NCBI GenBank assembly: GCA_002633005.1
Contig: NMRA01000053.1
Coordinates: 382,131 to 446,130 of the forward strand
Direction: 5' to 3'
Source: Phoronis australis
Taxonomy: Eukaryota > Animalia > Phoronida
Length of the DNA stretch: 64,000 bases
Shown here: piece after piece, positions 15,101 through 64,000 of the stretch
Layout of the letters: every line of letters begins with the position of its first letter
How positions within the stretch are numbered: position 1 is the stretch's first letter
Translations under genes and position numbers: made by a program
Notes under the pieces: model-generated
What the model saw: only the letters and a program-made list of their open reading frames with translations
Databases searched by the model: none
Told to the model about the DNA's origin: nothing

Positions 15101-16377
15101 CGTCCAGTTGAAGTGTTTGTGTCATTTTACCTCCAGACAGCAGCATTACCTGCTCAGTTGACAGCAGATTTAGTCGCTTTGTACACAAGTTCTTCAGGTG
15201 AGATAGAACAGTCGGTATGCAACTCTTGTAATGTGAAAGATATTGGCTGTGTAAGTTAAATAGAGAATCCTACATGAGTCTCAGGTTTATGACATAGGCA
15301 AAACCTCTTGGAATTTGCCACTGAAGATGGGTCCGTTTAAGAAGTTGTTTGCATGTCCTTCCCACTGGGAGTACGTACAGTTGCAACACACGATTTGTCA
15401 ATTATAACCTCGTCACCTCGGAATTCCAGCATTGTTTGGTGGGCGCGCGTTTGGTTGTTTCAATGTTTTGCAGACGATAAAATGTGAGGCGTATGGATTT
15501 CTACTTTGCACTACTTTATGATTCGCCCATGTAATATTAAAAAAATCCGTTCTTGGTGTTATTAACCAGTCGGAGGCAGTGTGGCCTAGTTGATAAGTGC
15601 CCGCTTTCTTTACTCGAGATCGTGGGTTCAAGTCCCACCAGGTCACACTGCTAAACCCTTGAGCCAGGTTTCTAGCTCCTCAGTTCGGTTTTAACCATAT
15701 ATCAATAAAGCATAAAAATATTTCCAGGTGATCAGTGCAATGGGCCCACATGCGAGGCCTGCACATGTCTGGTACAACGTGTATCAGACCGCCTGCAAGT
15801 ATTTTTTTTATTAACCAGTCGTGTCGTAACACATTCCAGGTCATGTGAGAAACTATATTTCTTTTCTTTTGGTGTTTCAATGCCCGATGAAAACTGAATT
15901 ATTTGACTACTATTCCTGCACAATTACTGTTACGCTATACAGTGCCTTGTTGCCATTTCATGTGCCCTAAAGTGATTATATAGTGTAGCATCAGGCAAAT
16001 TTCTGATTCTAGGAACTGAATCGAGCCAAAGTGTTCAAAAGTTATGGTATATGGAAAAGGAACTATAATTGTTTTTTATGACCTTTTGTTAATTTCCTGC
16101 CAAGTGAATGCGCTAGTCACGACACGCCCATGTGCGCTAGTCACGACATGCCCATGTGCTAGTCACGACACGCCCATGTGCTAGTCACGACACGCCCATG
16201 TGCTAGTCACGACACGCCCATGTGCTAGTCACGACACGCCCATGTGCTAGTCACGACACGCCCATGTGCTAGTCACGACACGCCCATGTGCTAGTCACGA
16301 CACGCCCATGTACTGCCCAAAAATATACCTAACACTTTACAGTCGTGCACAAAATGTTATATCTGTTTTCATTATTT

Positions 16378-16411
<34 letters not shown>

Positions 16412-38800: not shown

Positions 38801-41800
38801 AAACACTGGCACCTGGCTGCAGTACAGAAATACAAACATCAAAATTCATTGTAAAGAAACATTTATGAAACACCTACCAACCCTAAACCAACAATTTATA
38901 ATAACAGGGCAAGACATACATGAAACACAAGTAAAATTTCGAAAAAAAATTATGCGTAGAGATTGATGTACATTCAATTTAACACTAATCAGTCATTGAA
39001 AAACACCCAGTTAGTACATGTACACATACAAGGGATAGCAGCCTCCTCCTACAAGTCAAGCTTAGCCACTTTGCACCCATATGCGTAACACTAATAAGAG
39101 CTAAAATTTGTTAACAAAATCCATGTAAGCCTAAATACCTAAATATACCACATTGAGTAAATAACCATTCCCTTAACACCAGCCCTTTTTCTATTTTAGA
39201 CTAACTTTCCTGACAGGTATCAACAGAAAGGTAGAAAGTTCTCAGTCTTAAAACAAACCAATTCACTATTTTGCACAACTGATCCTAATCTTGTTTGTCC
39301 AACTTTAAGGCGTAAGAATCTGTTTGCACAGCACACCAGCAGGAAACAAACTGCCTCACCATTTCGTATTGTTGATAGCGATGGCTGCGGAACTTCGGAG
39401 TAGAGCAATTCGGCTCTCACTCATGATGGCAACATCGTCTGCTGTGGACGTAGGACATATTACAAGGAAGCTGCGGAGACCGTACCATCGGCAGAGACAG
39501 TGCGCCCGTGGACAGAAATCATTTTCTAGGCTCATGAGATCCTGGTGGACCATGGGTATTTCATCTGACAATGTATATGTAGGTATGCCTTAGAACAATT
39601 ATTAACAAGAGCATTTGAATATGTTTAATTCAGAACTACTTAACCCCACAACAAACAGGCTACACGTTCTTTGGTGATCATTTCCAGAAACAAATGTTCT
39701 TGAGAACATGATATTGTCATTAGTGTTCAGTTTGCTTTCTAGTCAGCTTCAGTCAAAGCAAACAATAGCAACATTGAGTACCCACTTTACAACTGCCCAT
39801 TACACTATTTAAAAAGGTTATGCCAGTCACATGATCACACAATGCACAGACCTCACTACTACTTCACAAATACTCCTGGAAATAGTGCTATTCAGCATAC
39901 ATTCAGCAAAAAATGCAACATTTGAGTTCAAACAATGACTGAAACAGGTTTGTCTAAAAGAAGCCTGCTACTTAGAGTACAGGTAGCAGCCCACTAAAGA
40001 AGAATTTGATAAATGAGAGCTAGAGCTGTGTTTTACACAAGATGATGGACAAAGTGCACACTGCTTTACAAAAGCAAGCACTGAGCAAGCCCAGTCAATA
40101 GTCATAGGAGCAAGTTGTCAGCAAATGAACTAATAAAAGAATTTCAAAACCATTATTTGACACGATGCAGTTACCTTCTCTGTCGCCATCGTCAGTACTG
40201 GTCATCTCACTAGAGGTCTCTGCTGTCTTCAGAGTGTGGTAAGTAATTGTGAACGGAAAATCGGCAAAATTTATCTCCCGAGTTTTTTCCGTCCATTCCG
40301 AAGATGACAGCTCATCCTGCATAAAGTTATGACCGTAATGTTATAATCGCATTTAATGCTTTTCTAGAATTTAAAGGGACAATGTCATCTTATGGATGAA
40401 AAATGAATTTTAGGGACTCTTGTTGGATGAGACTTTTAGAAGGTACTCGTCAATCCCTTTCTTGACTAACTTTCACAAGACGGTTGTTTTGAACTCATCC
40501 ACTCATGAGACACAAATTGCCCATTGGGACTCTTGGCAAACACTAAAATGTACAACTCCAAACAAATATTTCCATGTCATCAAATATACAGTTTTCAGTT
40601 GTATTATCTTACATGATTCCAACAAAGCCCAACTGCATGTAAAACTAGGCATTAGAATTTGAAATCCAATTTGTCAACCTTACTTTAACTGTCATATACT
40701 CTGGCACAGTTGACCATAAAAGAAACTATTTCACAGCAGGTTCATTTACAATGGTATTGCCAGTACTGCACACGAATGAAATAAGAAAACAAGTGTGACT
40801 TTACTACCACCCAAGTACACATGTCTGAAAACTTCCAAAATCCCCTGCAAAATGAAGCCGACATGTAGTTCTCATAGATGCTTCATGGAACAAACCTTCT
40901 TTAATGGCAATAAATTTCTTGGATTTGTTAGTTTCCATTCGTGAATAGCTTCTTCAATTTTGGCGATGAATCTGAAAACAAAAAATACAATTGACAATCA
41001 CTGCCTACGAATCTAAAGCTCAAGTACAAAAAGCAATACAATAACAATCACTAAAACACAATCCACAACACGTGATGCTACATTGTATTCTATATGGAAC
41101 TAAACTCAGAAAAACTATCAAAAAGCACAGAAACGAGTGCCTGTGGTTAAAAACGATAAAATAGTTGGTTTTGCTCTGTACACCGACTCATTTTGAGAGC
41201 TGCACTTACCAACTTAAAAAATAATAATGCCATGATTTGTCAGAAGAATCCCACAGCATTTTTGTTCATCTCAGGTGGATTTTCTTTTTGGAAAAAGTGA
41301 GCAACTAAAATAATACCACATCAATGGTTTGACTTAAAAAAAAACACACAGACCAGAACCAACAATGCTTTTTTCACCTGATATTGCTATGTTCTCTACC
41401 GTATAGGTTCAGCAATGAACGTATAAAGTTCTTAGTTGATAGTTAGATCATGTGTTAACTGCTTTTAGTGGTAAAGTCACAAAACGTAAGTCTGCCTCTG
41501 CGGTAACCTAAAGATGTCACAGTGCAAGAACAAGAGAACACAGAACTTTATGATGTTCAATACCAGTTCCAACTTACCTTTCCCAATCTGTAGCTGTAGT
41601 AAAATCAGTTATTTCAAAAACATCGCTGTCCTAAAAATCAATGACAGAGAAGAGAATCACAGTTGGAACCTACTTCATTACATGTTAAACACATTTAGTG
41701 TGGAGTGAATTCAAACTGTTATCAGGTAGGGAAATTTTACCTCAATCAACTTGAACATACAGGTGACCAGTTATCGTTATGGGTCATACTTTCACTATTC

Positions 41801-43296: not shown

Positions 43297-46200
43297 ATGG
43301 AAAAAGAAGAAAAACAGCCGGGTGCTGCAAAATATGGGAATTTTATAGACTACTATAGGTTTAATCCTGCACGAAAAAGAATTTCTTTTTTACCCCGTGA
43401 CTTAGTTACATCACGAGTTTGGACGAAAGGCTGTATTGGTCTGGATATAGGGTGCAATACAGGGGTAAGCCATCTATCATGTTGCAATGGTTCAGTCTAG
43501 ATAGACACTAGTACACTGACAAGACACTACTCACTCTCTACTACATCTGTACTACGTCACAAGTCAGGTTTCTAAGAGCACTTACTGACAAAGGTACAGG
43601 GTAGATTCAGAAGACCCACAACAGTGTTCTCCACATTATAAACTCCAAACTTGACGCAAATGTTGAATGTCAGTTATTGACATTGTCTTGTGTCTTATCG
43701 TAAGGATGGTCATGCTGGAGGTATTTATATATGGTTTAAAACTGCACACTGCACTGGTGTGACCTACTTTTTAGACACTTCAAAGTTTAGCTTTCCTACC
43801 AATGCATCTCATAATTACTCCAAAGCATTTGACACACCCAGAGCAGCAAACAAAAGATCAAAAGTTCCTTTAATAATACCAATGCCGATTTTAATATCAA
43901 TTAGACATATTAAATACTACTAACATGAGTTCTGATGTGACCTAGTTTTTAGTGACACCTGTTGTCAAGTTTAATAAGCTCATAAAGTTCTAACTTGCCA
44001 CTAGATGTCAGTCAAAATCAAAATTGTCTTTATTAAGCAAATTAAATTGCTTTTTTACAGATTGACCTGCAAAATTTTAAAGTTAGAATGACAAAGTAGA
44101 TTATTCATTAAATTAAGCAAGCTAGGTGTTTCCATGAAATGTTTGTTATTTAAAGATTTTTGCAGATTTTGTTAATTATAATTTAAACTCTTGTAGTGTC
44201 TTACGAAGTTATACATATAGTGTTGACTGCCTCTAAAGTTCTGAAATGGGCTTGATGTTGGTTAATCAGGCACTGCTTTAGTGTTGAGGGCTGAAATACC
44301 AAGCCAGGACAAAAGTTCAAACCTGACGCAGCACTTTCTGAACTCCACGCGCATTTTCCAAACTCGTTACAGCATTTTCCAAACTCGTTACAGCGTCGAG
44401 TTAAAACAGGCCGTGGAGAACACTGCACAAACACAAGAGGAATACCTTAGGAGGCCATCGATGTCTTTAATTTCTACCAACTCGAACGAATACTTGAACT
44501 GTAGGCAATGACTATCGCCTCTGTTGGCCCGAACCAGAGGCGATGCAGAGGCTATAGGCGCTCTGTNGTACAGAGCGCCTATAGCCTCTGCATCGCCTCT
44601 GATTCGGGCCAACAGAGGCGATGGTCATTGCCTACTTAAACTGTAGTCACACTTTTTTCGAGCAGTCTTTTGTTTAGTTGCCCAAATCGGCAACTAAGGT
44701 GTTTCGTACACCTGATAAGGTAATGCATCTGTCCTCCATCCATTCTGAAAGGAATCAGTTGTAAGTCTCACGATGTTTTTGATCTTGTGCTTGTTGATAG
44801 CCAGCTACCTTATGATTGCGATTTGTGCGATAAGTTCAAACAATGTCAATGATCCTAACTGAAGGTCGTGCAGCAGCCATTCTCAGGGTAGCTGGCGATT
44901 GATGGTAGCAACATGCCATGCTGAGATTTAAGAGCATCACAAGACTTTTGGCAGATTTCATTTAGAATGAATGGAGGTTGAATTGTACATGTACAGTGTA
45001 TGAGATGTTTATTCTAAAAAGATGGTATTAAGCTGCTGTAGTTCAACATTCCTTTAGTTTTTGCAACTCTGGCATTCAAATGACACCTGCCTTGTCCAGC
45101 CTTTTAAACGAGACAATCTTTTGAATGTCATTTTCTTACATCACTCTCCCACTTTTGTAACAAATAAAAAGCCAGATGTTGATTTCAAAACAGTAAGCTT
45201 ATGACATGCATAGTGTCAATTGCTGAATCTTTGATCTGGTAAAGCGCCATCTTTTGTGAGATAACAACTTTGTTCAAGCAAAATTTCCTCAGTTTCGGTT
45301 CACTAGTTGTTCCTAGGGTTCGTCCTTTTCTGCTGTAGCTAGACACCTTATGATTTGCTGTTGCCATTTTTATCACTTGTAATGGGATACAGAAAAGTAA
45401 GTTAACCTGTCTGATGTTCGTAGTATGTATTACTGAATCTTGTGAAACAGATGTCATCAGAAACTAGAACTATAGAGGAGGCAGTGTGGCCTGGTGCAAT
45501 AGGTGCCCGCTTTCTCTCTCGAGGTCATGGGTTCGAATCCCACTGGGTCACACTGCTAGATCCTTGAGTCAGGTTTTTAGCTCCTCAGCTCGGTTTCAAC
45601 TGTATATTGATAAAGCATAAAAATGGTTCCAGGTGATCAGTGCAATGGGCCCACATACGCGGCCGCCGCAGGTAATTATTTTTATTACGGTAACTAGAAG
45701 TGTATTGAACCTATCCTTGCGAAACTTACTGTCACAACCATATAATGCGTTGAGTTGTTCAGTGTGCCAAATGAATATTTCCGCAGTAGTATCTCACAAT
45801 GTGCATCTGCCATCAATATTTTAAACCTTGACTTTTTGTGTTCAATTTTCAGGAGCTGACATCTGCGCTGATTGCTCACTTGTGCCACTGTTACGTTGAA
45901 TTGGAACAAAAAGTGTCTGTTAGAGAACAGTTATCACACATGGATGATAAAAATGTCGTCATATGTAGCAACTCTCAGTCGCATATTCCCTGCACTGACA
46001 AGGATGGCAAGAAATGCTGGACCAGGAATACTAACTCATGTGGTGACCTTCAAACTTCTAACAATTTACAGACAAAAGTTTCAGATTCTACACAAAATTT
46101 TAAAGGCATGGACACCAGCTCAGAAACTGCACAAAATCGTTGTCATCAATGCCACAAAGACAAGGACACTGCAAGCGAGTGCAAGATTTCTATGCTTGGG

Positions 46201-46668
46201 GTTGATATAGATCCCATTTTGATCCAGCGTGCTATAGAAAGCAACACCCTTCCCGATCACATTACATACAAAACATTGGACATCATGAGCGAACAGGTTC
46301 ATCACTTGGATTTATATTTAGCCAGGCATGAGAAAAAGAAATTTGATTTTATCTTCTGTTTTTCCGTAACGATGTGGATTCACCTCAACCACGGTGATGA
46401 GGGATTACGCCAATTTTTACGCCATGTCTGCGCTAACACTCGGTATTTAGTTGTTGAGCCTCAACCGTGGAAATGTTACAAATCGGCCATGAGAAGATTG
46501 AGAAAGCTCAAGTGTCCGGAGTTTGATACATTCTTGTCTCTCAAATGGAGGGAATCGGTCAGTGATGAGATGGTCAGTTATCTGGAGGCAGAGTGTGGTA
46601 TGGCATTAGTGGAGGAGTTGGGTGTAACTGACTGGGACAGGAGATTACTACTGTTTGAGTCAGTATGA
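43297..46668 (+). CDS. BCDIN3D: RNA 5'-monophosphate methyltransferase of the Bin3 family (BCDIN3D-like). Exons 43297-43464 and 45853-46668 (327 aa)
   Basis: PGAAKYGNFIDYYRFNP, SAM motif I GLDIGCNTG, LGVDIDPILIQRA, FCFSVTMWIHLNHGDEGL and YLVVEPQPWKCYKSAMRRLRK. Phase-0 GT-AG intron. Confidence 0.93.
44501..44635. repeat. Near-perfect 135-bp palindrome with nested hairpins and a central N
   Basis: GTAGGCAATGAC...GCGCTCTGT-N-GT-ACAGAGCGC...GTCATTGCCTAC. Confidence 0.8.
45477..45686 (+). mobile_element. tRNA-derived SINE of the same family as 15573-15807
   Basis: Colinear similarity with copy 1, including the B box GGTTCGAATCC and the 3' part GGTGATCAGTGCAATGGGCCCAC. Confidence 0.8.
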
Positions 46669-47111: not shown

Positions 47112-48801
47112 TTGTGCACCCACATATTTATATGTGGGTGCATATTGCCGTCATCTCTGTCTGGGCATCTGCATCTCCTAAACCCCTTGCAGGATCTTAC
47201 TGAAATGTGGCAGGTGTTTTCCTATGGGGTTGACAACAGAGGGCGAAGAGTTTTGGACCGACCTGAATACCGCTGCAACCCCTAGTGGCAATTTTAGTTT
47301 TATACGTTTGCCTCTGTATCTTCAAAGGTCCTCAACTGATTTTCATGAAATTTGGCATATAGGTATCTGTTAATGAAGTGACGCTATTCTTCCATTTTGG
47401 GATGGATTCGAGGCAATTTGCGCCATCTAGTAGCCATTTTTACTATTTTCGAGTCCGTTTTTTTCGTCCGCCCCTCTGTCAGCCGAACCACCTGAGGATG
47501 ATTGTGGAAATTGGCATGTATGTTGAGGATGATTTTCCGACGACATTGATTACTGTGGTGCCTCCTTGTGGCAGTTTTGTTTGTTTCTGCGCCTATGGCT
47601 GTATCTCCTAAACACTCTACAGGATCTTTATTAAATGTAGCAAATGTATTTATATGAAGTTGACAACAGACGACGACGACTTTTGGATAGATTGGACTAC
47701 AGGTGTGCCCCTAGTGGCAATTTTATTTTTTTACGTTTACGTCTGTATCTTCAAAGGTCCTCAGTGGATTTCTATAAAATTTGGAACATAGGCATCTATT
47801 AATGAGGTGATGCTATCCTCCCATTTTCGGATGGATTCGAGATATTTTGCGCAACCTAATGGCCATTTTTACCGTTTTTTGGTGTCCGTCCTTCCATCAA
47901 CCGAACCACTCTAAGGGTGATTGTGAAAATTGGCATGTATGTTCTTACTATGAAGAGGACGGTTGACGATAATTTTCTGATGACTTCGACTACTGTGGCA
48001 TCTCCTAGTGGCAGTTTTGTTTGTCTTTGAGCCCATGGCTGTATCTCCTAAATGCTCTAAAGGATCTTTATTAAATGTAGGAAATGTGTTTATATGAAGT
48101 TAACAACGGAAGACGGGTTCAACTCGCACTGCCCCCTTACTGGCAGTTTCATTTTTTCTGTTTTCCCCTGTTTCTCTGGAGTTCCTCTACGAATTTTCAT
48201 GAAATTGTTAAGTAGCTTTCTTTTAAAGAAACGGTGACATTTTCCTGTTTTCAGATGGATTCAACATATTTTGCGCCATCTAGTGGCCATTTTTACTGTT
48301 TTATAGTCTGTTTTTGCAGTCCGCCCTCTGTCAACCAAACCACTCTTAGGATGATTGTGAAAATTGGCTTATATATTGTTAGTGTGAAGAGGACGGTTGA
48401 CGATAATTTTCCGGCTTCAATTCTGTGGCGCCTCCTAGTGGCAGTTTTTTTTGCACTCTTAGCTGTATCTCCTAAGCCCTCTGCAGAATGTTTATTAAAT
48501 TTAGCAAGTGTATTTATTTGATGTTGGCTACGGAAGACGACAGCTTTCAGACAGATCCGATGAACCTTTGTCCCCTAGTGGCAATTTCATTTTTTCCGTT
48601 TTGCTAAAGTTTCTCGACGGATTTTCATGAAAGGTGGTAAATATCTTTCTGTTAAAAACAGTGGCATTTTCCATTTTTTTGATGGATTCAAAATACTTTG
48701 CACTATCAAGTGGCCATTTTTATGATACAAATAAACACCCTAGAAGCACAATGTTTGCAATGCATTCGTGGGTGCATTTCAACGCTCCGCATTGCTCTTG
48801 T
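47112..48801 (+). mobile_element. Helentron/HINE-like element (copy 2) with about 430-bp higher-order units made of about 145-bp subunits
   Basis: 5' TGCACCCACATATTTATATGTGGGTGCA hairpin; unit starts GCTGTATCTCCTAA near 47170, 47598, 48038 and 48462; 3' subterminal inverted GTGGGTGCA. Confidence 0.65.
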
Positions 48802-49878
48802 AATTTATATTGCCAACAAGGTTTTGTGTTGTTCAATATCCAATAAAATATAGGAGACTGAAGAGTTATTACAACATGATCAGCCTGTGCTTTTGCAAAA
48901 CAGAAAATACAAAGAAATGTTTCATAATTTTTATTCTGTAAATTACTAAACTTAACACTAGCGCAAATTTATTACACAAGTTTAAAATAATATTGACAAC
49001 ATCATTTTTGTTTGCATCATGACAATGAACTACATATGCTCATAAAAAATCCTGTGGAGCCCAACTGTGGAGTCAAGCTGGGGTCACAACTTCAAACTGG
49101 AATAAATCCAATGGCGGGTATTTCTTCCAACGAAGCAATCAATGAGATCCATTCGGTCCATAGTATTGTTCTGTGATCATTAGGCATGCTTACTTGTCAT
49201 GAATTGTGAATTAGGAGGACTTGTATCCCACAAATCTACTATGGAATACGCATACATCGATTTTCGCCATCCGTAAAAATTTTCGGCGATTTTGAAATAA
49301 AATGGTGCTGTGTGTGTCTTCGAATTAGTGATGTATCTTGCTCATGCTGAATCCCATTGAAATGGAGATTGTATGTTAAAGCCTCTACAAACGCGCTTCA
49401 CTTGCCATTATAAATGTGGTCCTAACTTGTTCCTTGCTCCTCCTACAGGAGATCCATGGGGTTGAAAAGAACTGAAAGTTCATTAAATTGCTCGAGATCA
49501 GTCTCTATAAGTTGGCTTCTGATGGTGCTGTTCATTTTATGCACCGAGCATGGTCGACAACACTCAAAAGTTTGGAGCGAAGTTTGAGAACTGCTTTCAA
49601 AGTCTGCTTAATGTTTTAGGCGAATAATACGACAGCTGTTAGGGAAAGCCCACCCACTAAGAACCACAATATCTAACCTTTGACACAATCAATATGTGTT
49701 TTTAGTTTAATGCTGCTTTTATCACGAGATGACAATGGTGTATTGGCAGGTGAGAAAATGAGGATTGATTAAAATCACCAAAACAGGATTTAGTATCATT
49801 TTAAGTAAATTAAACTTGGGGGTTGACCAGACCAGAAACTTGATTGATCAAAGGTGATGATCGGAACATTACGTAGAT

Positions 49879-50069
49879 CTACTCGCGGGATTTTCTTTTT
49901 TGAATGTTGTGGTCTTTAGCCAGATGTCGTCGTAGCTGCACATGCCACTTGAAAGAGCTGTCACAGTGAGGGCAGGACATGCGCACTCCCAGGTGCTCCA
50001 CCTTAATATGCAGGCGCATGTCATTTTTGTTGTACAGCTGGTAGCCACAGATGCCGCAGGCAAATGAAC
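49879..50069 (-). CDS. Terminal exon ZF-A with two C2H2 fingers: (G)SFACGICGYQLYNKNDMRLHIKVEHLGVRMSCPHCDSSFKWHVQLRRHLAKDHNIQKRKSRE*
   Basis: Acceptor TTACTTTCAG|, phase 1, two CX2C-X12-HX4H motifs, own TAG stop. Confidence 0.85.
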
Positions 50070-50223
50070 CTGAAAGTAAATGAAACATGTGACAATCTGA
50101 TGTATTAGATTTTTTTAACGATTTCCTAATTTGCTTGCTACAATGTTGCACCGTGACTGTGTACTTTATTAGTGACATTTGTCTGTGAGTGTACTCCGTG
50201 TTCAATGAAGGAGTCCTTATCAG

Positions 50224-50357
50224 TTACTGGCACTAAAACAGTGTGTTGCAGCCATGTAGGTCATCACTAAGGCTTTGTCACAGTGTTTGCACTTGGAAGC
50301 AATGTCTGCCAGTGGAGATTGTTGTCAGTTCTTACATCTCACTCTTTAGTCTTTTGA
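50224..50357 (-). pseudogene. Possible decayed zinc-finger exon
   Basis: Acceptor GCTTTCAG| with an early stop; SKCKHCDKAL lies downstream in another frame. Confidence 0.25.
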
Positions 50358-51176
50358 CTGAAAGCAGCAGCCCCTCTTCTCATCAGCTTAGAATGTGATA
50401 CATCTTTTACGAATCAGAAACCTTGTAGTACTTCAAATCCCTCAATGAAAAATGTTTGTTCCGCAAATGCAGCCTACGTCCTTCTATTCTCCTCGCCTCC
50501 AATGATCCTAACATCCTCGAGCACCGTGAATCCAGTAAAGTTACCGAATAAATTTATTTCTAAGTAAGACAATAACAACTTCTTATCTTCTTGTCCTTGA
50601 AAAGCAAAATTTTACTAGATAAGAAAAGTTCAAATTAAACAAGAAGCTGTTCAATACTAAGCCTCGTGGTGTAGGACCCTACAAAAATGTCAAAACTTGG
50701 CTAACTTCGGAACATCACACCTCAGAAATGGTTGAGCAGATTCATATGAACCTTTCAGATACTAGGATTTATGCGCTGTCCTCCAAAAAAAAACTTTTAG
50801 GAATTGTTTTTAAAATGTTTCATTTTTGCATGAGGGCTATGAAAAATAGGATTTTTATGGATACCGTTGTTTAGTGATTGATTCAGCCATTTAACACCAT
50901 TGTTTTGCTATCAATGTACCTTTCTTGTTTATTAAATTTTACAAAAAAAAACATGGACATGTGATCCAATTAATGGTAGATTGGTTTAAATTCTACAGGC
51001 TTCCTACTTTCAGAAAATATATAGTTTTACCGAGTTAAAATGTACAAATGTCGTGTTAAAATACAGACTTGTTGATGAAGTTCTACGCAACATTAAGGAC
51101 ATAAATGGTACAAAATACAAAAGAACGTTGTTTTTATAAATCCCCGTTTTCCTCAGTGTCTAGTCAGTAACTGTAT

Positions 51177-51275
51177 CCCTGCGTTCCTTGCTTAAGACCC
51201 ACTCCCTGCATCCCTGCCCCTGCGTTCCTTGCTTAAGACCCACTCCCTGCATCCCTGCCGACCTGCGTTCCTTGC
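51177..51275 (+). repeat. Short tandem repeat of about 41-43 bp, about 2.4 copies
   Basis: CCTGCGTTCCTTGCT recurs three times. Confidence 0.8.
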
Positions 51276-51534
51276 TGAATACGCGCTCCAAAAAGTGTTT
51301 TTATTCTGCAGCACAGGGTAGATTAAAGAATGGTTAATTACTGGTGTCGACTCAAAATGTATTTTTAGAACATAAACATACACGTCATTAATACTGTTGT
51401 GAAACAATAAGTTGTTTCATATTTTAACTCACTTGATCCCGTTATTAGTTTGCAAATGTCGTTTTAAAGGTGACTAGTTGTATTGTTAACATTACGATTA
51501 TTAACAAAAGATGTGGTGCATTTTGAGACACTTA

Positions 51535-51704
51535 CTAGCTTATGTTATGAAATTTCATGACATGCTTCTTGATATGATGTTGCCATTTGAATGTCTGTGG
51601 ACACATTGGGCACTTGTGTCTCATACCGAAATGCTGAGCCTTAATGTGACGGAACATGGCTTGCTTCCACCTCTGACGGTTTCCGCAGATTCCGCAAACG
51701 AAGT
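51535..51704 (-). CDS. Terminal exon ZF-B: (D)FVCGICGNRQRWKQAMFRHIKAQHFGMRHKCPMCPQTFKWQHHIKKHVMKFHNIS*
   Basis: Acceptor TTTTTGTAG|, phase 1, two C2H2 fingers, own TAG. Missed by the ORF track because it has no start codon. Confidence 0.85.
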
Positions 51705-52398
51705 CTACAAAAACAAAGAAACGGCATGTGAATTTGCTTATTTGTGATTACGCTACTATTTTGGTTTGGGTAAGACGGTGTGCGGGGCATTTTATTAGAA
51801 AACAACACGCAATTTCTTGTAATAGGTTGCAAATATTGTACCAGCATTGATGTTCACCTGAAATTGTGGTTCATAATTGTAATGAAAATGTCCTTAACAG
51901 AATCTATAGATTGTCATGGTGAAGCACAGCCATTCGCAGAGGGAGAGGGGGGGGGGGGTAGTTCAAGTGCTTTTCATTTTGTTGTGCAATGACTGAACTG
52001 AGGGTACGTGGCTTCTGTTGATGGGAATGTGCTGCTGAGGTAAGACGGCCCACCTGTTTAGAGACGAGGAGATACACATAGTGCATTCTTTTAGAGAGGT
52101 AGAATGAGTCAAAGGGACCCATTTGTAGGATCTATGAAAAAGTTGCAGTTGTAGTCTATGGGTTTATTCCCATAGCAATATTTTTGTTGGCAAGTTTTAA
52201 CACTTTCAAAAGGCTTGTTTATTGAATTCAGTAAGCAGCTATTTGCCCTGTAGTCTAGTTTTTAATCCAACAAATCACACGATGCCATTTTGCAGACTTG
52301 TGTTGCAAAATGCATTTTGTTTACTGTCCCTGACCCTTAACGTGAACCTTTTCTGGGGAATCTGGCCATGAAAAATCCAACCGTCACCCATATATTAA

Positions 52399-52765
52399 AA
52401 GGATACTACACCCTGTTTTGGTTATTTCAGCCAACACTCATTCTGACACCTAATAACGCACCAATGGCGTCCAAACTGAGTGATGAAAGCAGTCAACTAT
52501 AAACTCATACTTTCTTTGTCACAAATTGGATACTATCATTATTATAGTACTTAGTGGGTGGTCTTTCCCCACAGTTGTTGTGTAACTCGCCTGAAGCGTC
52601 GGCCAGGCTTGCTCATTTGGCAGATTTTCACAGGAATTTTCAAATTTTGGTAAAAATATTTGAGGGTTGTCAAGGGTTACAGAGCATTATTTTGTTTCAG
52701 AGGACTATACAGAAATGTTATTTTTAAATGTATGTTAATAGGTCAAAACCGGGTTTGGTATCCTT
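52399..52765. mobile_element. TTAA-flanked MITE (Kolobok- or piggyBac-type target site)
   Basis: TTAA|AAGGATACTACACCCTGTTTTG at the left end and CAAAACCGGGTTTGGTATCCTT|TTAA at the right end. Confidence 0.75.
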
Positions 52766-54754
52766 TTAAGTACCCAGACCGACACCCACACACTGAACAC
52801 CTATGCGCTAATCTGCTCTGTACACATACATCCAGTTTTCATATAACATTTTCTATTTTTTAATATTTATACGTGTTAAAGAAGCTGTAAATCCACTTTT
52901 AAAAACAACTTTTCTGAGTTGAGTCACTTGTCATTATCAAATTGATTTTGACATATTCCTTAACCTTGCTCTCATTAAAGTTGATTTCTGGGCTGGGGCA
53001 GACATTTCATCATTAATACTATTATCAAAATATCGATGTTTCACTAGATTTTATGCACACAGCATAATGCAGTGACAAATTGTCAATTCTTCCGGAGCCA
53101 AGAAACCATTCATCTGAGCACGTAAGAAGTTTTTTAAAATTTAATTATGTAAATCAAAAGTGAGATTTATGATGGATGGTGGGTTTTGTACCACTTTATT
53201 AGATGTCAAATCAAAATGACAGGCCTATTTGTTTATGTGACAATTGGAAATTATAATATGTATAGTTTGTGCATTGTTGTTTTCTAACTAAATTTTGTTT
53301 TTAGTAAGTCTTTGTGGTAGACAAATGCTGTCTTGGTACATATTTCATACGTATACCTTTCTTGCAGTGGTGCGCCGCTTTTCAACGCCAAGCTTAACAG
53401 AAATTGAGGGTATTTATTCTTGTCATCTTGATAATTTTTACTGCTTTTTTACATTCCTTCTCTATTTGTCAGGAAATAGAGTGTGGTACAAATGAAGCAC
53501 TCAGCAGGACATAAGGTCAAACAAATATTATTGATGGCTATTGTTGCTAGTTGCCAATTTTCACTTCTGAAGACAATGCTGATTGATCTTTCCCATCTTA
53601 TGAGGAAATCAATTTCAATAAAGAACGTTAGACTGTTTCTTTGTGCTTCAAGCTGACCATCTTTGTAAAGAATAAAAAATGTTGATTTTTCCATGAACTG
53701 AAAACAAAAGTGTGGGACATTATTATGAAAATTAACGTCACTTCTCCCGACAGATGAGCGAAAAAATTGATGGACCTCTTAGTTTTAAGTAACCTGTTGT
53801 GCGGACATCAAGTTCACGCTTGGAGAGAAAGTTCTGCGTGATTTAAATGAAAAGTGTTATTCCATGGCTAACTGGTCAACATTACTTAATAACCGACGTC
53901 ACATGATGCATGTAGTCAGTCAGTGGACCGGAGTATCAGCAAACACGGTAAAAAGTAGTCCCCATAAATAAACGAGCTCAATTTAAAAACAAAATATATT
54001 GACTAGAAAAGCATGCTAAGCTATACGATACGTTATGATTATAAGATATTAAAATACAATTGCTATAGTATAGTAAATATATAAAATGACCGAAGTCTTT
54101 AAACAATACAAACTAGGTTTTCTAGACTAAATAAGATCACAAAAACTGGGATTTTCTGAAATCACGCCTCAAGGAAAACGTGAAACAGAAAGATTTTCCA
54201 AAAATTTTCTGACACGGCGCTCGGCCATTAGTGCATTTTCTGTTATTGTACAGATCCATCTTCATCCCAAACACCTGGCGAAATTTACTGACCACAAAGG
54301 TGGCCCCTAAAAGGGCAATTTATCACATTTAACAGTTGTCGTTATGAGAATTTCTCAGTTTTCATTCCAATTGTAGTTTCTATTTTGTGTGTGCTCCCAC
54401 TTTGAATAAACACCATTGGCACAGATAAATAACCTGGATACTGCTCATGGAGTGGTTACAGAAATTCTCCTTCTACGAATCATACATATAGCTGACAGTG
54501 TATATTTGCTTTTGATGTTTGAATTTTCAACTACACATTAAAACCCTGTTGATGATTTCATTCATGATATCTATGTCTCCTTTTTTCAAAACTACGCCAG
54601 GAGAAACTATACGAATATATGCAATTGCCAATCAAGTCTATAGGACACAAAAAGATATAAGCGCCCTCTATCAAAATGGATGGAAAACGGCCGCGGGAGT
54701 ACAAAAGGACTGTCACCACATGACTTCAGTGGAGCATCTGTGATTGCCAAGTCA

Positions 54755-54930
54755 TCACGGCTGAACCAGTTTGTGAAAAGTCACAAGATGCTCCTTTACT
54801 TGATCTTTCAGCTTGAAACTTTGCAAACATATGGGGCAGGGGTGGCCGAGACCAAAGTGAATTTTACTCATGTGACGGCGTAGCTCTTCTTTAGTCACAA
54901 ACTTTCGCAGACAGAAATCACACCTAAACC
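54755..54930 (-). CDS. Terminal exon ZF-C: (G)FRCDFCLRKFVTKEELRRHMSKIHFGLGHPCPICLQSFKLKDQVKEHLVTFHKLVQP*
   Basis: Acceptor TTTCGTTGTAG|, phase 1, two C2H2 fingers, own TGA. Not in the ORF track. Confidence 0.85.
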
Positions 54931-56248
54931 CTACAACGAAACCAAAACGGAAGCGTCATCAGCAGAAAAACTGGCTACGCATAGAGTGCAAGATATTTCC
55001 TAGTTAGAGTCTGGCAAAAGACGGATAAAATATGAAATTCAGGGATCAGATTGTGCTGACATGTAGCCACAAAATCTAATATTGAGGTAAGTGTTCTCAA
55101 CAATATTTCATGAAAATTGCCCTGCCGTGCCATGGAATAGAAACTTGCACATCTACAAAACACACCGGTATCCGTTTTTTGCCTCAACTATTTTAATGTG
55201 AAATTCAATTTTGAATTTCCAACCATCTACCAAAGGGACATACAGTGACTGGAAGAGGCACTTTGTTGAGAACATGCCTTTGATTTTTTGGCCAAATTTT
55301 ACTTAAAGTAGCATTTCGCCCTGTTTAGCAGCCTAAAAAACAAGTATTGAATTAAGTCTTTTACTCTCATAAAATTCATCTAATAACAGTCTCTATAGCG
55401 ATAGGATTTTATTTCCGTTACCAGCTCAAGTCATAGGTAATGCTAGATTAGTACCTATAGACTATACGACTCCGATTGGCAATAAAAATGATGTCAAGTA
55501 AGTTAGCAATAAAGGCTTGTCCCCCTCAATCGCACTACATCACAATTATTGTTTTACCTGTTGATGTCCGTCTTGTGACGGCATCCCTTTATAAACTCAG
55601 TCTCTGAGATGTTGGTGTCAAGCGATTCAAAACTTGTCCTACAGACTGTATACTTGTCTTTGCTTATAGGATATTTAAAATAATGCATTATGTGCAAAGC
55701 AGCGACAAAATAACATACAAGGGGTGTTTTATATATTTGTTACAGACTTTTTAACGGCAAAAGTAACGATATGTTCCATTTCAGTGCATCCGTGTGGTGA
55801 ACCAACGACACCTCTTGGGCGAATCAACTAACGTGACATTCCAAATAAGGAAGTCAATAGCAAGGAACTTGACTATCAGCTTGCATGAAGCAAACTGCGC
55901 ACTGGTGGCCAGAACGAGGCAACATATACATGCACCATTTTCTGATTTGCACATAGACCACGACATAGTCAATGCCATATTAGTATGAAGTAGGAATTTG
56001 AATTCCACACAATTTTTACATCCAAGATGAGTTTTACAAAGTCAAATTCTACGCTTTTCTAGGTAATTGGCCAGAAGTTGTGCAGTTCGATAACCACTTT
56101 GCAATTTTTATTTCTCTTTCCGACATTTGCTTCTGTATTTGCTTTTTTAGATAAACATCACCAGATTGTCCAATTTCAGTGTTATGAAGTTCCAGTTTGA
56201 TACATTTGATCTCAAAGAAAACAAATTATTTCATCTTTGTGTTAGACT

Positions 56249-56504
56249 TTAAAGCTGCGTTTCACCCAGATTAGCTACCAAAAACAAAAAATGAATTACC
56301 GATAAGAGCTTTTACTCTCATGAAATCCGTGACGGGATATTCCTTACCGTGATAGGATTCTACTACCGTTACCAAAAAGCATGTACGCATTGCCTTAGTA
56401 ACAGAAATACAATCCTACCATTGTAAGGAATATTGAGAGACTAACTTTATGAAAGTAGTTTGATTTTCACTTTAAGGCAGCTAAACAGGGCGAAATGCAC
56501 TTCA
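56249..56504. mobile_element. Short MITE; a related left end is at about 55303-55425
   Basis: Imperfect inverted ends TTAAAGCTGCGTTTCACCC and GGGCGAAATGCACTTCAA. Internal CTTTTACTCTCAT...CCGTTACCA is shared with 55358-55422. Confidence 0.5.
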
Positions 56505-57680
56505 ATAAAAATAAAATGTTGAAATAATCAAAAATTTATTGCGTACCACACAAAGGATACATTCTGCTAACAAGCACATAAAATACTTATAACTGCAAGT
56601 TATCACTTCCGGGTAGTATTCTAAATATCTAAATAAATATAAAGACACTTTACACTACAGTAATACGCTTAATAAAACTTCTAAGTAAACATCTTAATAA
56701 ACAGCACAGAATTATGAAAACAAGATCTACATTAACATAACATGTATCCTACTACACAATATAAGTCTGCCCGACAGTAACATGTTCAATATCAACTTTA
56801 GAAGAGAATAGTTTTAAGAACTAAGTTGTAAAATGTGTATCTTGTGCACTCTGTGGTTCTAGCCTCCAATACAGTAAAGTGTGATTGATACAGTACAAGC
56901 AAGAAGTATTTAGACCCAGAATTCCCCTCCATGATGGCTGGGCAGAAGCCAAATTCATCGTCGGATTACTAATAGTCTTCCGTTGTGACTGAGAATGAAG
57001 GGAAATTAACAAGAACATATTAAGTAGGGTGCCTGAGCCATTCTGTCAGCTGTCCACTGTTGCTGTTAACAGAATTAGTCATCATGATGCGAAATGCTTT
57101 TTGTCCGATTACTTTCATCACGGTATGAAAGTTCTATAATACAGCGGCCAGAGAACTCACTATGAACGCAGCCCACAAAAAAGACAGATAAGACAGAGGA
57201 ACACTCAATCAACCTTTGAGAGTTCATGAATGCATCTAGAGGGGAGAACAGACAGGTCCACATCTGGTCAGTAAGAATCCAAAAATAACCAACGTCTCAA
57301 TCAGCAGGACAATCACAAGAAGTAAAGTAGCTTAGTGCCTGAAGCAGATTCGAGGGTTGCCCCACAAGTGTCTAAGTAAAGGCTTGCACAAAAACATGGA
57401 AAGAACATCAAGAAAACATCAACATTGTCACTTGAATAAAACTCCTTACTCTAAACAATCCTCAAAATATTTACTTCTATATAACAGCCGAGCAGCATGG
57501 CTTCTAGAACTTAAATTCGTCTCAAAATCTTCAGCTTGTCAGTCCGATTTATAGGAAAGCCATTTTCCTCGTGAAAACAAAAGCCACGCTTTTATGCAAT
57601 TTTTCCTTCACTGAATAATCTCATTTTTATCAGCACCATAAACACAACCTTGTATTTTGGGGGGAAATCTGTTTCAAGAA

Positions 57681-57874
57681 TCAATGAAATGTTTTCACCG
57701 CTTCTAAGTCGGCAGTATGACATTTCTTCATGTGCTGTTTCAGATGGGACTTCGTCTGATAGTTTCTGTCACAGACGGCACATTTAAACACTAAACCCAA
57801 GTGTATAGCTCTGATATGATGCTGTAGATCAATTCTCCAGTTATATTTCCTTTGGCACAAGCCACAGACAAAGC
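57681..57874 (-). CDS. Terminal exon ZF-D: (G)FVCGLCQRKYNWRIDLQHHIRAIHLGLVFKCAVCDRNYQTKSHLKQHMKKCHTADLEAVKTFH*
   Basis: Acceptor CTTTTACAG|, phase 1, two C2H2 fingers, own TGA. Not in the ORF track. Confidence 0.85.
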
Positions 57875-58666
57875 CTGTAAAAGTATAGTATAAAATGTTA
57901 GTAGACGTAACAGGATCTTTATTCTTTTAGAACACGTCTCGAGTGTAATCTGTTAACAACTAGAAAAACACTTTCACAACCATTAACTCTGTACTAGCCA
58001 AGTTTGTCACCAATAAATAGGCACTGTACAAACTTGTTAAAAGCGACATTGGCTTATCTATTATGCCCGTAATGGGAACCCAGCCTCAATTTTCAAGATT
58101 TCTCTTCACGATAGCTCTAAAATAACATTCTTAAGTGTCGTTTCTAATCGGTCATGCCTGGAACGTGGGACCGGACCCTCACCTCCGTCGAAAATCCACC
58201 CGTGTTAGAGATGACAGAACTATTAAGGGGGAAGTGGGGTGTGAAAAGCAGACAATGGGGTAGGGTGACACGGGTGGTCACTCAGGGGGTGGAGTTAATG
58301 AAATTAGTGCAAGAAGGAAGGTCTGTAAATTTGTTTTTGTACTCCTCAACATCAAAACAGTACTTTTGCCCATGTCTTTCAGTGTATTTGCATTGAGTTT
58401 GAAATCCGCAATCAAAGGTCACAAAGCAATGGGTAAGGTGGCCCCCATCTTGCGAGTACACACACACGCACACTATAGTAGAGGCATGTTCGAAAACGAG
58501 GAAGGTAAATAAGATCTTGCGAAGAAAAAGAACTAACATGGCCTCACAAAACAAAGCACCAGAAGATGGAAGATACTGTAACAAACTAATGAACTCTCTT
58601 AAAACTAAGTACTGTAACACAGAATATGAACTCTCTCAGACTAGCAACTAAAATACAAACATTTAG

Positions 58667-58839
58667 CTACTCCATAACTTTGTGAAAGGTTTGCAGGTGC
58701 TTTTTAATAGTAAATCTCCATTTAAAAGTCATCGGGCAGATGGGACACTTGTGTCGAATGCCGAAATGCTGCGCTTTAATGTGGCGTGAAAGGTCGCCTT
58801 TCCTGCTGTACTTGTTCCCGCACATACCACATGCAAACC
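58667..58839 (-). CDS. Terminal exon ZF-E: (G)FACGMCGNKYSRKGDLSRHIKAQHFGIRHKCPICPMTFKWRFTIKKHLQTFHKVME*
   Basis: Acceptor TTTGTTGTAG|, phase 1, two C2H2 fingers, own TAG. Closest paralogue by eye is ZF-B. Confidence 0.85.
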
Positions 58840-59107
58840 CTACAACAAAGAATAGCTGTCTTTACCCAAAGCCATCTGGCCACCATAAAGAACTCTTACA
58901 GCCAATGCGTTTCTGTTTCATCACCAAAAAAGTGATTCAGGCCATTGTCTACGGATGAATGTGGATTACGTTATAACAATCATGGCTGTTTTCTTTGCAA
59001 GTAGCGAGGACATATTGAAATAAGCTGTGTTGCTTATGTGGACTATTTGGTAACAGAAGTATAGTGCCACCATAGACTAAAGATATTGAACAGAGTATCT
59101 ATGGTGT

Positions 59108-59160
<53 letters not shown>
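59108..59160. repeat. Compound microsatellite (CA)n(TA)n
   Basis: Read directly from the sequence. Confidence 0.95.
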
Positions 59161-59163
<3 letters not shown>

Positions 59164-60857
59164 ATGTATTAAAATATTGTGGCTTAATTGCTGAGAATGT
59201 AATCACCAAATCTTACTAAATATTGTAATCGAAAATTAATCAATCACGTCGGGTGAAATCAGAAAGTAACTTAGCGTAGCCTGCTTGAGCTCTGTTTATG
59301 ACATCATAACACCAGGAGACACAATGTGTAAAATAAATTCTACAATTCTAGTAAAATGCAGCAATTATAGGACACACAAGACTGGCAGACATGTGAATTT
59401 CTATATTGTCGAATGTCTTGACAAAAACGACATTGAAGTAAGTTTTGTCAAGATTTTCGACATAATATAATTTCACTTTAAAAAAGTTTTTGACTTTTGT
59501 TAGCATGGTTTGCAAGGCACGGTTGCCTCCAAACATTTCGGAAAACCTTCAAAAGTGGAAAATGGCTGTTTTATAGTTTTTGTCCCGAATTCAAGAATTT
59601 TGACTGTAATCTGCATTTTGTTTAGGGCTTCCCTGGATGACAACCTAGGGTCAGTTGAGCTCACCCTTTGAGGATAGCTTTGACCTTTGCAGTGAAGCTT
59701 TACAGGTGAGTTTTGGTTCAGTTGATCTTGTTACTTGTGACCTGTTGTGGTTTTATATACTCTTTGAGGATGATGATTAGAATTGAAAAGAATATGTAAC
59801 TACACAATGCTGCCCACAATTGTGCCGAGTTTTCTATTACCTTTATACCAATCTGCCTTTAATTGGGTCAGGTGATCATGACTGCCTTTTTGGTAAAATT
59901 GAGCAAAAAAGAACGGTGGTTGTAGCAAAGCAATGTCATTAACAGTACCAGATTTTATTTGATATAAATGTTCAATATGAAATCTCAATGCTGTTACAGT
60001 ATTCTAATTTATCATTTTTTCAGTTTATGCAACTTTTGAGGTTTTCTATCATAATCATGAATGTCCTATTTTTGATTGCCTTTAACATTTTTTGGAAAAC
60101 AGTGCATTGACATGATATCTGAAAATGCCATACGAATCCATCAGCTATTTCAGAGCTATGATGTTGGAAAATTTTCTAGTGTCCCACACAGATAGCCTTC
60201 TAAGGCCATGTTTTGTCAAGTGACTCAGTATAAGTTGAATGTAGGTTGTTGTGGACCCTAAACACATGATTAACACAGAAATGCCACACAAAATTTGAAA
60301 TAAAAATCAATTTTCTCTAAGCTTAACTTTTAAATGATTTAATAGTCTTGCTGTCAAATCTTGAGCAATACATTCTGCAAGATTTTTTGTACATTGGAAC
60401 ATACAGAAATTTTGTGACCATACCTTCGGCAAATAATTTCTAGGGTCTGAAATGAAGATGTTTCACCCTTACAGTCATTGATCAGGGGGGGGGTGGAAAG
60501 TGATGGGAGGGGTGGAAAGTGATGGGAGAGAACTGATGAGGAGCTGGGAGGAGAGAGGAGGGTAGATGAAGTTGATATGTGGGTCTGGTCCTCTAAAAGT
60601 TGCCCACTGTCCCGAACATGCATTGATTATTATAAATAAATGGCAACAGTCATCTCAGAATGAACCCCTCGCACAAATCATAACACACTCGCGAGCTTCC
60701 ACGTTATTATGAATTTACTTGATTTTCCTAAAATGTAAATCACAGTGCTAGTGGCAATTCCAAATTTCGCAATAAACACACTTGTCTTTTGCTTGGTGGT
60801 AACTGATTTGTGCACACATGTCAAAATGTCTGGGAACGCAATTGTGAAGTATAGATG

Positions 60858-61034
60858 TTTTGTGCATTAATGGCACATAAAAGCCCATTTCACCAGTTCA
60901 GCTGTCAATGTTGAATTCATAACTGAAGTTCTTTAGGGTTTAAAAACATTACCACACTCATCCGATCTTGAACTATTATCGAATGAGCGGGCAACTCGAA
61001 TCACAGGCAATGCATACATGCACCATTTTTGAAC
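60858..61034 (-). pseudogene. Probable decayed zinc-finger exon
   Basis: Phase-1 acceptor TTGCAG|, then (G)SKMVHVCIACDS. In shifted frames DECGNVFK and TGEMGF/MCH*CTK (TGEKP-like linker), broken by stops and frameshifts. Confidence 0.4.
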
Positions 61035-61565
61035 CTGCAATTCAAGGGTTTGGCAGATAAACTATACAATATATCTTGAGTTTAACGGTTTAATAATCAG
61101 ACAGCATTTGATGACAAAGACGTACAAACAACACCAATAACACAGTGGTAGTTGGCTAATGGTTCCTCTGTTCTTGTTGGAAATACAATCTTATCACAGT
61201 AAAGAATATTGTAAATCCAATTTTAGGAGAGTAAAAGGCCTAATAAGACAAGCTTGACAGCACAAAATGCAGCTTTAAACTAGCTATTGAAGCAACTACC
61301 AGTTAGGTTCTCAGTTAGCAAAGAAAATTAAAAACAACAAATTGGCAGTAGCTAAAGCTATATAGGACAATAATTAAGCCTTGACAAAATTATCATATTA
61401 AAAACTGGTCTTGTTGGAGCCAGTCAAGAGGTATATACAATCAGTGAAGTCCATGTAGGCTATAACTGTGCAAAAATAGAGAAGACATCTCCGAGTACTA
61501 AAAAGCTCTAAATTGTATTCTAAACGAAACAAGGCTTTAGAGAATGAGCTTTACTGACATGAATG

Positions 61566-61711
61566 TTAGTAATAAATGCAACAACATAACAACAATAATA
61601 GAATGCTTTGCTTACAAAAGTGGCAACTGGTGCCCCCATAAGCTTTTATGCAATATGTGTGAGAATAAAAGAAATTGACACTGCAACAATGCTTTAGTGG
61701 CAAGGATGAAC
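61566..61711 (-). pseudogene. Possible degenerate terminal exon
   Basis: Strong acceptor CCTTTTTCAG|, phase 1, open to a stop: (G)SSLPLKHCCSV...TSCHFCKQS. One CX2C knuckle remains but the His ligands are lost. Confidence 0.25.
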
Positions 61712-62100
61712 CTGAAAAAGGCACAATGGACCCCATTTCAACTGCACTCTGAAAGCCAAATTTTACAATATTGTACATCTGTTCACAGTATTGTTAATTT
61801 AGACACTTTGCCTACAATAAAAAGACAATGATGCCTGCTAATTATGGACAGAATACTAGAAATTTCCAATATCGTAACATCAAACTATCATGCATGGAAA
61901 TAGGAATCAAAATCTGCAACTGAATTAATTATAGTTATCTTACATTGGCACATGGTGAGAAATTTGTAGAAAAAAGTGTGACTGACCAAGGCAGAGTTTT
62001 GTAAACCCAAGACACTTACAAAGCACTTCTTGTAAAAAATCTTCGCTTATGGAACCAAAGCAAAGAATTCTATCCCTTAATTGATACCCCAACCTCACTG

Positions 62101-62228
62101 ACCAATCACTTTAGTGCTTGGGTATGTTAGTAATGTCTGGTGCACACTTGACATAAACTCGCCCTTCACTCGCCTGATTTTTTGAGTGGTCTTGATTTTT
62201 TCGCAATTCTTGCATCAACGTAACACAC
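62101..62228 (-). pseudogene. Probable decayed zinc-finger exon
   Basis: After CACAG| in phase 1: VLR*CKNCEK; after a frameshift: CQVCTRHY*HTQALK*, which keeps CX2C-X3-Y-X5-L spacing. Confidence 0.35.
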
Positions 62229-62960
62229 CTGTGACTCCATTTATTTACCTATAAAAAGCAACCAATGAAAAAAATTTCGAGGAACAGCACGCTTTTGATC
62301 CTTCATGCTGTCGCTGAGTTCGGTATAAACAAATACAGTGCTGCCTCCTCTCCACTTTCTGTCCAGATGTGAACTCAAGAAATGCTAGTTAAAGCTGCTT
62401 TCCGTTCAAAAAGTCAACTTTTGATTTGGACCTCTTTCCACTGAAAATTGGGCTCAACTTGTTAATTACTCAGATGGGGACTGTTTTTTTTTTTGGTTAG
62501 CAAAGAACTGACAGTTAGTTTATCCTGGACACCATGCTTACTTAGAGCTTAAAATGACACACCCTGACTGTGTCAACTTGCAGAGCCTGATCTCAAGCAC
62601 TAACAAACTGTTAGTTCTTTCAACACCCTGAAATAAACTACAATTTGAATAAGGTACAATTTGAGACCAACTTCCCCAGGGTAAGTGGAGTAAATAAACA
62701 ACTGTTATTTGTGATGGAAGTTGGGTTTATAACCACTTTAAACGAGATGGAAAAGTTTCCTGGCCATGATAGCACTGGATTCAACCTTCAGGTGACAGAC
62801 AACCTGCCACTGAAATGAACAAGTCAAATTTTTGAAGGACTGACTGACCTCAGGTATGATATTCAGAAGCGTTATTGACTGGAAAATTATAGTTTTTTGT
62901 GGCCCACAAACGTAATAACTGCTTGGCAAGAAAAACTTATGAGACGGAATGCAGTTTTAA

Positions 62961-63133
62961 CTATTCCGTCAACGCATGAGAGGTTCTCATATGATGAGTC
63001 AAATTGTCCCTCCGCTTATATGCCTTTGAGCACACGGAACACTTGTGCCGAACGCCGAAATGTTTCTCTTTGATATGGCGTACAACGTCCCTTTTCCAGA
63101 TGTATGGGCTCCAACAAATGCCACACGAAAATC
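62961..63133 (-). CDS. Terminal exon ZF-F: (G)FSCGICWSPYIWKRDVVRHIKEKHFGVRHKCSVCSKAYKRRDNLTHHMRTSHALTE*
   Basis: Acceptor TTTATTCTAG|, phase 1, two C2H2 fingers, own TAG. Confidence 0.85.
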
Positions 63134-64000
63134 CTAGAATAAAGAACACCTATGAAAAATGTGCGATGATGATCACTAGCTTTTTCACTTTCCAACTCCA
63201 TTTTAGTTAATGTAATTCTTCACTTTTTTGCACGAAATTAATTAAATATATTTTTCCGAGAGTCGGGGTGCGCCAAGTGAACGCAGACTTCGCAGTGGAC
63301 AGGTGTAGAAAATTGACCAAGCATCGCCACCTGCACGTGTGTTAATTTAACGAAATATATATGATCCTAAGTATATTAGCGACACCTTTAATCCAGGCCA
63401 CCCCTTTCACCAGCATGAGATATACCGCATAAATGGATGAATTAAGTGGTGAATATACAATGTTCAGACTATAAACATCACAGTATGGTATTATGATGTC
63501 TATGGTTCAGACCTTTGTTGACATAGTAAAAAATATGTGTATGTAATTAATGACATGGCTTTGCATTGACATTTTTCAAAGGGGAAAAACTGACTGCGTG
63601 TTTATTAGGTCAGGAACGAAATTCTCACCAGGTAAATGAGGGATAAAAACACTTTTCAAAATAATTTTTGGTAGGCGAAATAAGAAATAAAATCTGGACT
63701 TCCGGAGAGGTAAGTCATTGGATACTGTCACAATCAGTAATGTTATCTGTTGAAAAAATTCACCTAAGTTATCACTATGCATGTGTACCCGACTAACCTA
63801 AGATCCCAGGCTGAGCTATTCAGAATTCATAGAGGTTAATAAAACAATTATCATCTCCAGCAGGACCATAAACCCTTTGATAAGCTGTACTTATTTACAC
63901 AGTCCAATTGGAGAACTCATGACTAGGGGCAGGTTCACAAGAACTACTTTCACTGACCTTGCAATTGTCATGTTCAAAAGTCCCATTGTGAGTTAAGGAC

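Follow-up and report, generated by a model that had tools for sequence, protein, structure and literature searches.

Six exons on the minus strand of the 64,000-nucleotide stretch of DNA analyzed here (the window), each encoding two C2H2 zinc fingers, were confirmed as a real feature, and they probably serve one transcription-factor gene as alternative last exons, reached by cis-splicing from one shared phase-1 donor. Junction reads were not obtained and the window does not reach the front exon, so that this single donor is inferred from the properties of the six exons, hereafter cassettes e6 to e1 in the direction of transcription (Table 1).

Table 1. Cassettes, associated signals and neighbor genes in the window.
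Feature	Position	Strand	Description
Cassette e6	62961..63133	-	Putative phase-1 terminal exon; helix positions -1, 2, 3, 6 = WRDR, RDNH; acceptor at 99.5th percentile
Cassette e5	58667..58839	-	Putative phase-1 terminal exon; helix positions -1, 2, 3, 6 = RGDR, WFTK
Cassette e4	57681..57874	-	Putative phase-1 terminal exon; helix positions -1, 2, 3, 6 = WIDH, TSHQ
Cassette e3	54755..54930	-	Putative phase-1 terminal exon; helix positions -1, 2, 3, 6 = TEER, LDQE
Cassette e2	51535..51704	-	Putative phase-1 terminal exon; helix positions -1, 2, 3, 6 = WQAR, WHHK
Cassette e1	49879..50069	-	Putative phase-1 terminal exon; helix positions -1, 2, 3, 6 = NNDL, WVQR; last of the array
AATAAA	57918..57923	-	Candidate polyadenylation signal, the first canonical one past e5; lies 49 nt ahead of the e4 acceptor
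TACTAAC	57897..57903	-	Branch-point-like heptamer ahead of the e4 acceptor; read from the sequence
Putative 3' UTR of e6	61425..62960	-	Stranded depth, extent at bin resolution; ATTAAA at 61094
Putative 3' UTR of e1	48935..49878	-	Stranded depth; AATAAA at 48973 and 48935
BBS9	about 3.1-21.7 kb	+	Neighbor gene
Rab3GAP catalytic subunit		-	Neighbor gene
Bin3-domain methyltransferase (BCDIN3D)			Exon in the window

A sequence-only reading of this DNA had proposed six minus-strand segments of 170-194 nt, and all six were recovered at the same coordinates. As that reading held, each of them encodes exactly two CX2C-X12-HX4H fingers and then stops (6/6), with the stop codon 3-11 codons past the last His, and each follows a YAG and opens in phase 1, its first two bases completing a codon (6/6). 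Given a G at the end of the donor, the exons start with G-F-x-C in four cases, with D-F-x-C at 51704 and with G-S-F-x-C at 50069, where e1 carries one additional codon ahead of finger 1. The accompanying claim that start codons are lacking stood for five of the six exons, which have no in-frame Met upstream, but not for the exon at 50069, which has such residues in its unspliced frame. Six-frame scans of the window turned up twelve C2H2 fingers, which form six pairs and lie without exception on the minus strand; a lone loose match on the plus strand was traced to a low-complexity repeat. The two-finger pattern with an H-[FL]-G linker occurred at six places in the window and at none in each of 100 shuffles, a control that speaks to specificity and not to discovery because the pattern was derived from these very exons. 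No seventh copy was detected in the window by a profile of the six exons (next match E 0.019), and the Pfam zf-C2H2 cut-off was reached by five of the six cassettes, e2 being a weak match. With two fingers per exon, the H-[FL]-G linker and a stop after each pair, the layout is not that of Kruppel-type poly-C2H2 genes, in which TGEKP-type linkers connect many fingers within a single frame.

The six cassette proteins share 29-60% pairwise identity (mean of 41% within the window), the highest value joining e2 to e5, its nearest relative in the array. Ten columns are invariant across the six: eight hold the metal ligands, one the first Phe and one a linker Gly. Synonymous divergence (dS) is saturated in 12 of the 15 cassette pairs, the remaining three giving 0.92, 1.78, and 2.12, while dN ranges from 0.27 to 0.76 and all six frames are open; judged by these comparisons, the cassettes are old paralogues whose reading frames have been kept intact. 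A single origin of the six was neither shown nor rejected by a tree built from 52 columns of 42 finger pairs. Helix positions -1, 2, 3, and 6 of C2H2 fingers contact DNA, and the sets of residues at these positions differ among all twelve fingers (12/12), on which basis the finger pairs are predicted to recognize sites that differ.

The splice signals are strong. Fifteen BBS9 acceptors in the window served as the training set of a scoring matrix; when this was applied to the 987 minus-strand AGs between 46700 and 64000, the six cassette acceptors fell in the top 0.2-3.1% (above 96.9-99.8% of the AGs), with scores of 3.7-7.4 against a training range of -3.3 to 9.9. The TACTAAC heptamer ahead of e4 resembles the branch-point consensus. 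Between the last His and the stop codon, the six exons contain ten GT sites, all in phase 0 or 2 and none in phase 1 (0/10); because no phase-1 donor follows the last His, the exons cannot be chained in frame, and with a stop of its own in each exon the sequence-only reading was right that they cannot be joined into one poly-finger protein. One long finger protein built by exon chaining is thereby ruled out. Leader-type trans-splicing onto a bare cassette was likewise rejected, since no cassette has a Met ahead of its first Cys. Polyadenylation signals were found behind all six cassettes, and the regions behind e6 and e1 are their probable 3' UTRs.

Transcription was assessed with three raw-read runs (X1, X2, and X3; depths are given in this order) and one contig set, matched by species label. 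At 90% likeness, approximately 18-19% of each raw run was placed on 48500-64000; of these placed reads, 91-92% run on into sequence unlike the stretch and are repeat-like. Depth, of the order of 0.1-4, was counted in 517-nt bins, and the strand convention was assumed: in most stranded libraries, a first mate on the plus strand corresponds to minus-strand RNA. In the repeat-poor bins, which lie over e2-e5 and behind e1, e3, and e6, the first mate was exclusively on the plus strand. The e5 bin (58323-58839) had depths of 1.13/0.10/0.37, against 0.01/0/0.01 in the adjoining upstream bin (58840-59356); e4 gave 1.43/1.35/0 and e3 gave 0.92/0.97/1.58, with 2.09/0.69/4.13 in the bin next to it, the e3 signal being stranded in all three runs. 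The signal was weakest at e2 (1.0/0/0.07), coming almost entirely from X1. Stranded depth behind e6 (61425-61941) was 1.56/1.31/2.03, with 0 on the opposite strand, and behind e1 (49017-49533) it was 2.8/0.54/1.08; the e6 bin itself reached 2.88/2.78/9.87 with a repeat included, and the e1 bin was swamped by repeats. Only the acceptors of e5 and e1 allowed depth directly upstream to be judged, and there it dropped to about zero; across the acceptor of e1 and its upstream Met-bearing frame it was 0.03/0/0.03. None of the 24 loose read ends listed fell at an acceptor (829 more were present), and none of the 15 joints listed, besides 35 more, linked two cassettes. The RNA pattern fits spliced terminal exons with UTRs of their own, expressed at a low level and seen at coarse resolution.

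A constant exon within 63134-64000 was rejected, the stranded depth in 63493-64000 being 0.28/0/0.30. As no bin has the depth needed for a shared exon, the shared head is placed beyond base 64000, and the proposed gene would have its common front exons there, upstream of the array. One phase-1 donor ending in G would be cis-spliced to the acceptor of any single cassette, and the polyadenylation site of the chosen exon would terminate the message, so that each mRNA would combine the common head (BTB or another domain) with a single finger pair out of six or more. The array would have expanded by old tandem exon duplications, and it may extend past the edge of the window. Reading the cassettes as alternative last exons agrees with every test run, namely with the same acceptor phase, the separate stops, the lack of a chaining donor, the spacers without a paralogous coding piece, and the stranded RNA behind the stops. 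The common acceptor phase is also explicable by shared ancestry alone.

The same products would result if some or all of the cassettes had private promoters and their transcripts were joined in trans to the shared head, a route described for Drosophila lola and mod(mdg4) (PMC11426971). We consider this unlikely given that all six stand in one row on one strand and that unspliced leader RNA was not seen directly upstream of e5 or e1, although unspliced leader RNAs are short-lived and the near-zero depth at these two places is as compatible with trans-splicing as with cis-splicing. No clear promoters were found in the array by CpG content. It is quite unlikely that the exons are the ends of separate tandem genes, or of two or more genes with different heads. 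Duplicated genes would likewise have a common acceptor phase, the region past 64000 is outside the window, and there are a few donor-like sites behind short ATG-led frames of 6-51 codons, located before e6 (51 codons) and in the e6-e5 and e4-e3 spacers. Against separate genes, however, three of the five spacers (e5-e4, e3-e2, and e2-e1) lack an ATG-led phase-1 donor, and no paralogous same-strand coding piece was found among the seven flanking stretches compared with each other; comparison of the flanks gave short repeat matches only, and spacer-against-spacer tblastx returned a single opposite-strand repeat pair. In addition, the e5-e4 spacer measures 792 nt, has a single donor-like site without an ATG ahead of it, and is probably taken up by the UTR of e5.

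A further possibility is that an exon duplication left copies that are dead or unused, no more than one cassette being in use. The low RNA depth and the near-zero signal of e2 in two of the three runs are in line with such decay, but six open frames that retain all eight metal ligands despite saturated synonymous sites, strong acceptors, and stranded RNA at several cassettes make it highly improbable. The preferred reading thus remains that of alternative last exons of one gene.

Searches for relatives did not provide the head. No close relative with a head was found when the six-exon profile was compared with longer proteins (87 matches among 370 candidates, nearly all of them many-finger proteins), and a profile of e5 and e2 run against 1.84 billion representatives gave no full-length relative among the 150 matches listed, the best single domain scoring 57 bits. 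An Atlas search with the cassettes returned generic C2H2 clusters and no close relative, and back-translation of metagenomes yielded 179 pattern matches and no confirmed relative (0). The HX4H finger pair is typical of the tramtrack group (tramtrack, broad, fruitless, and lola); no tramtrack entry was present among the best 60 of 83 solved-structure matches.

The signature pattern was found at 124 loci from 40 of the 64 parts of a metagenome collection, mostly in many-finger proteins and with no orthologue, and 11 of these loci were inspected closely. In one of them, L053, a BTB exon (Pfam E 6e-24) ends in a phase-1 donor and is followed by five finger-pair exons, with a phase-1 acceptor candidate in two of the three cassettes tested; its start resembles the tramtrack-type motif. 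The complete layout is thereby present in another animal, which speaks for the proposed model. The rarity of the layout that the sequence-only reading had implied is therefore not borne out, since L053 has the same design behind a BTB exon. Two further loci contain ten (L032) and four (L044) finger-pair frames, each with a stop. Among 16 cassettes in five metagenome loci, acceptor candidates were in phase 1 in seven and in phase 0 in two, and seven had none. Window cassettes have 35-40% identity to their closest outside pairs, against the 41% mean within the window, and from sequence comparison these finger-pair loci are analogues of the window array. L053 resembles the array in its row of finger-pair exons and additionally displays the head, as a BTB exon with a phase-1 donor. 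It is unlike the array in having at most 37% identity to the cassettes, being no orthologue, and its exons are packed closer together and begin approximately 30-45 codons ahead of the first Cys.

The neighbor genes provide a signal of the host lineage. A search with one BBS9 exon gave 18 matches among 26 candidates; a nemertean (71%) and gastropods came first, and the matches included cnidarians and no named arthropod. Over 717 columns, the window BBS9 has 55-60% identity to gastropods and 59% to Nematostella, and in a tree that included no named arthropod it grouped with bilaterians (89/92). The view that the DNA comes from a non-insect animal was supported by the methyltransferase BCDIN3D, which two trees (99/98 and 96/94) placed apart from a supported clade of insects. 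Against a lophotrochozoan host, the top named matches of BCDIN3D are horseshoe crabs, and a tree of named sequences only placed it on the arthropod side (75/83); a grouping with Lingula could not be rejected (p 0.35), and a position nested with Hymenoptera was borderline (p 0.054). Overall, we consider a non-arthropod host moderately more likely than an arthropod one. We tentatively propose, at somewhat less than an even chance, a lophotrochozoan or other non-arthropod host with an independently evolved lola-like gene in which a head other than a TTK-type BTB is joined to six or more finger pairs.

Should the shared donor be confirmed, a single gene would encode six or more regulators that are predicted to differ in their target sites, and gene models retaining a single last exon would lack five others. 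In the literature, the design is associated with TTK-type BTB genes of arthropods; should the independent non-arthropod origin be true, swappable DNA-binding ends would be no arthropod specialty, and the case would show convergence and provide a compact locus in which to study the choice of a last exon. An arthropod host with a BTB head would make the locus a further case of a familiar design.

Tandem exon duplication with exclusive splicing is described as common and recurrent (PMC3342872), and isoforms of many TTK-type BTB factors differ in their C-terminal DNA-binding domain (PMC11426971). According to the latter study, BTB domains of the TTK type occur in arthropods alone and not in Annelida or Mollusca (PMC11426971), so that in a non-arthropod host a TTK-type head is not to be expected. 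No non-arthropod case (annelid, mollusc, or echinoderm) was found in the titles and abstract openings searched, a search with most subscription journals outside its scope. In mod(mdg4), there are at least 30 variable ends, one of which is attached to a constant head (PMC11426971), but these are mostly FLYWCH domains and are trans-spliced, whereas the ends in the window are C2H2 pairs. The lola gene has 20 last exons, 17 of them with fingers, and non-overlapping 3' UTRs (PMC10551640; bioRxiv 10.1101/132027). Unlike lola as it is known, the window presents cassettes without a head in a host that is no insect, and its cassettes number six, all of them pure C2H2 pairs that start 3-4 codons past the acceptor. 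On this comparison, the locus likely works like lola, and with a head placed beyond the window it may belong to the same family; like a lola-type system, it has a row of finger-bearing terminal exons in one phase, with their own stops and different DNA-contact residues.

Within the finger-array locus, the short segment at 62585-62619 (35 nt) attracted 108-289 stranded reads per run, and these reads carried three fixed differences and ended loosely at both sides. The pile is a transcript from another locus rather than an exon of the finger-array locus.

A perfect donor core (CTA/GTAAGT, phase 2) was also observed on the minus strand at 51535-51532, overlapping the stop codon of e2, one of the six terminal exons that each encode two C2H2 fingers. 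Joining this donor to the acceptor of e1, the last exon of the array, would restore a TAG, so that the e2 protein would stay the same and e1 would serve as 3' UTR.

Between the end of the array and the methyltransferase gene lies a 430-bp unit in about four copies that are 69-86% alike (47150-48800). We counted seven matches to a CTCF-like motif in the window, five of them inside this interval, against a whole-window expectation of 0.88. The unit is probably a dispersed repeat, since repeat-derived reads are abundant at the upper end of the interval.

Regarding the neighboring genes (see table), the core of the methyltransferase exon is preceded by a long insertion, and its best relatives reach only about 50% identity. 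The BBS9 and Rab3GAP genes are arranged tail to tail, and the latter contains a 316-codon open frame with acidic low-complexity sequence (32383-33330).

Coordinates of the neighboring genes in the window and of the metagenome locus L053
Feature	Location	Strand	Remarks
BBS9 (PTHB1) gene	window 3135-21781	plus	intron-rich
Rab3GAP catalytic subunit gene	window ~26864-40340	minus	intron-rich
BCDIN3D/Bin3-type RNA methyltransferase exon	window 45832-46665	plus	
L053, compact BTB gene	L053 ~190-4020	minus	donor in phase 1; five exons with finger pairs, used as alternatives

Among the metagenome loci matching the two-finger signature, finger-pair frames are densely arrayed in L032, L044, and L107, with a spacing of about 250-300 nt (ten frames within 3.1 kb in L032) and a stop of its own in each frame. 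L053, from another animal, is a complete example of the design combining a BTB head with alternative finger-pair exons.
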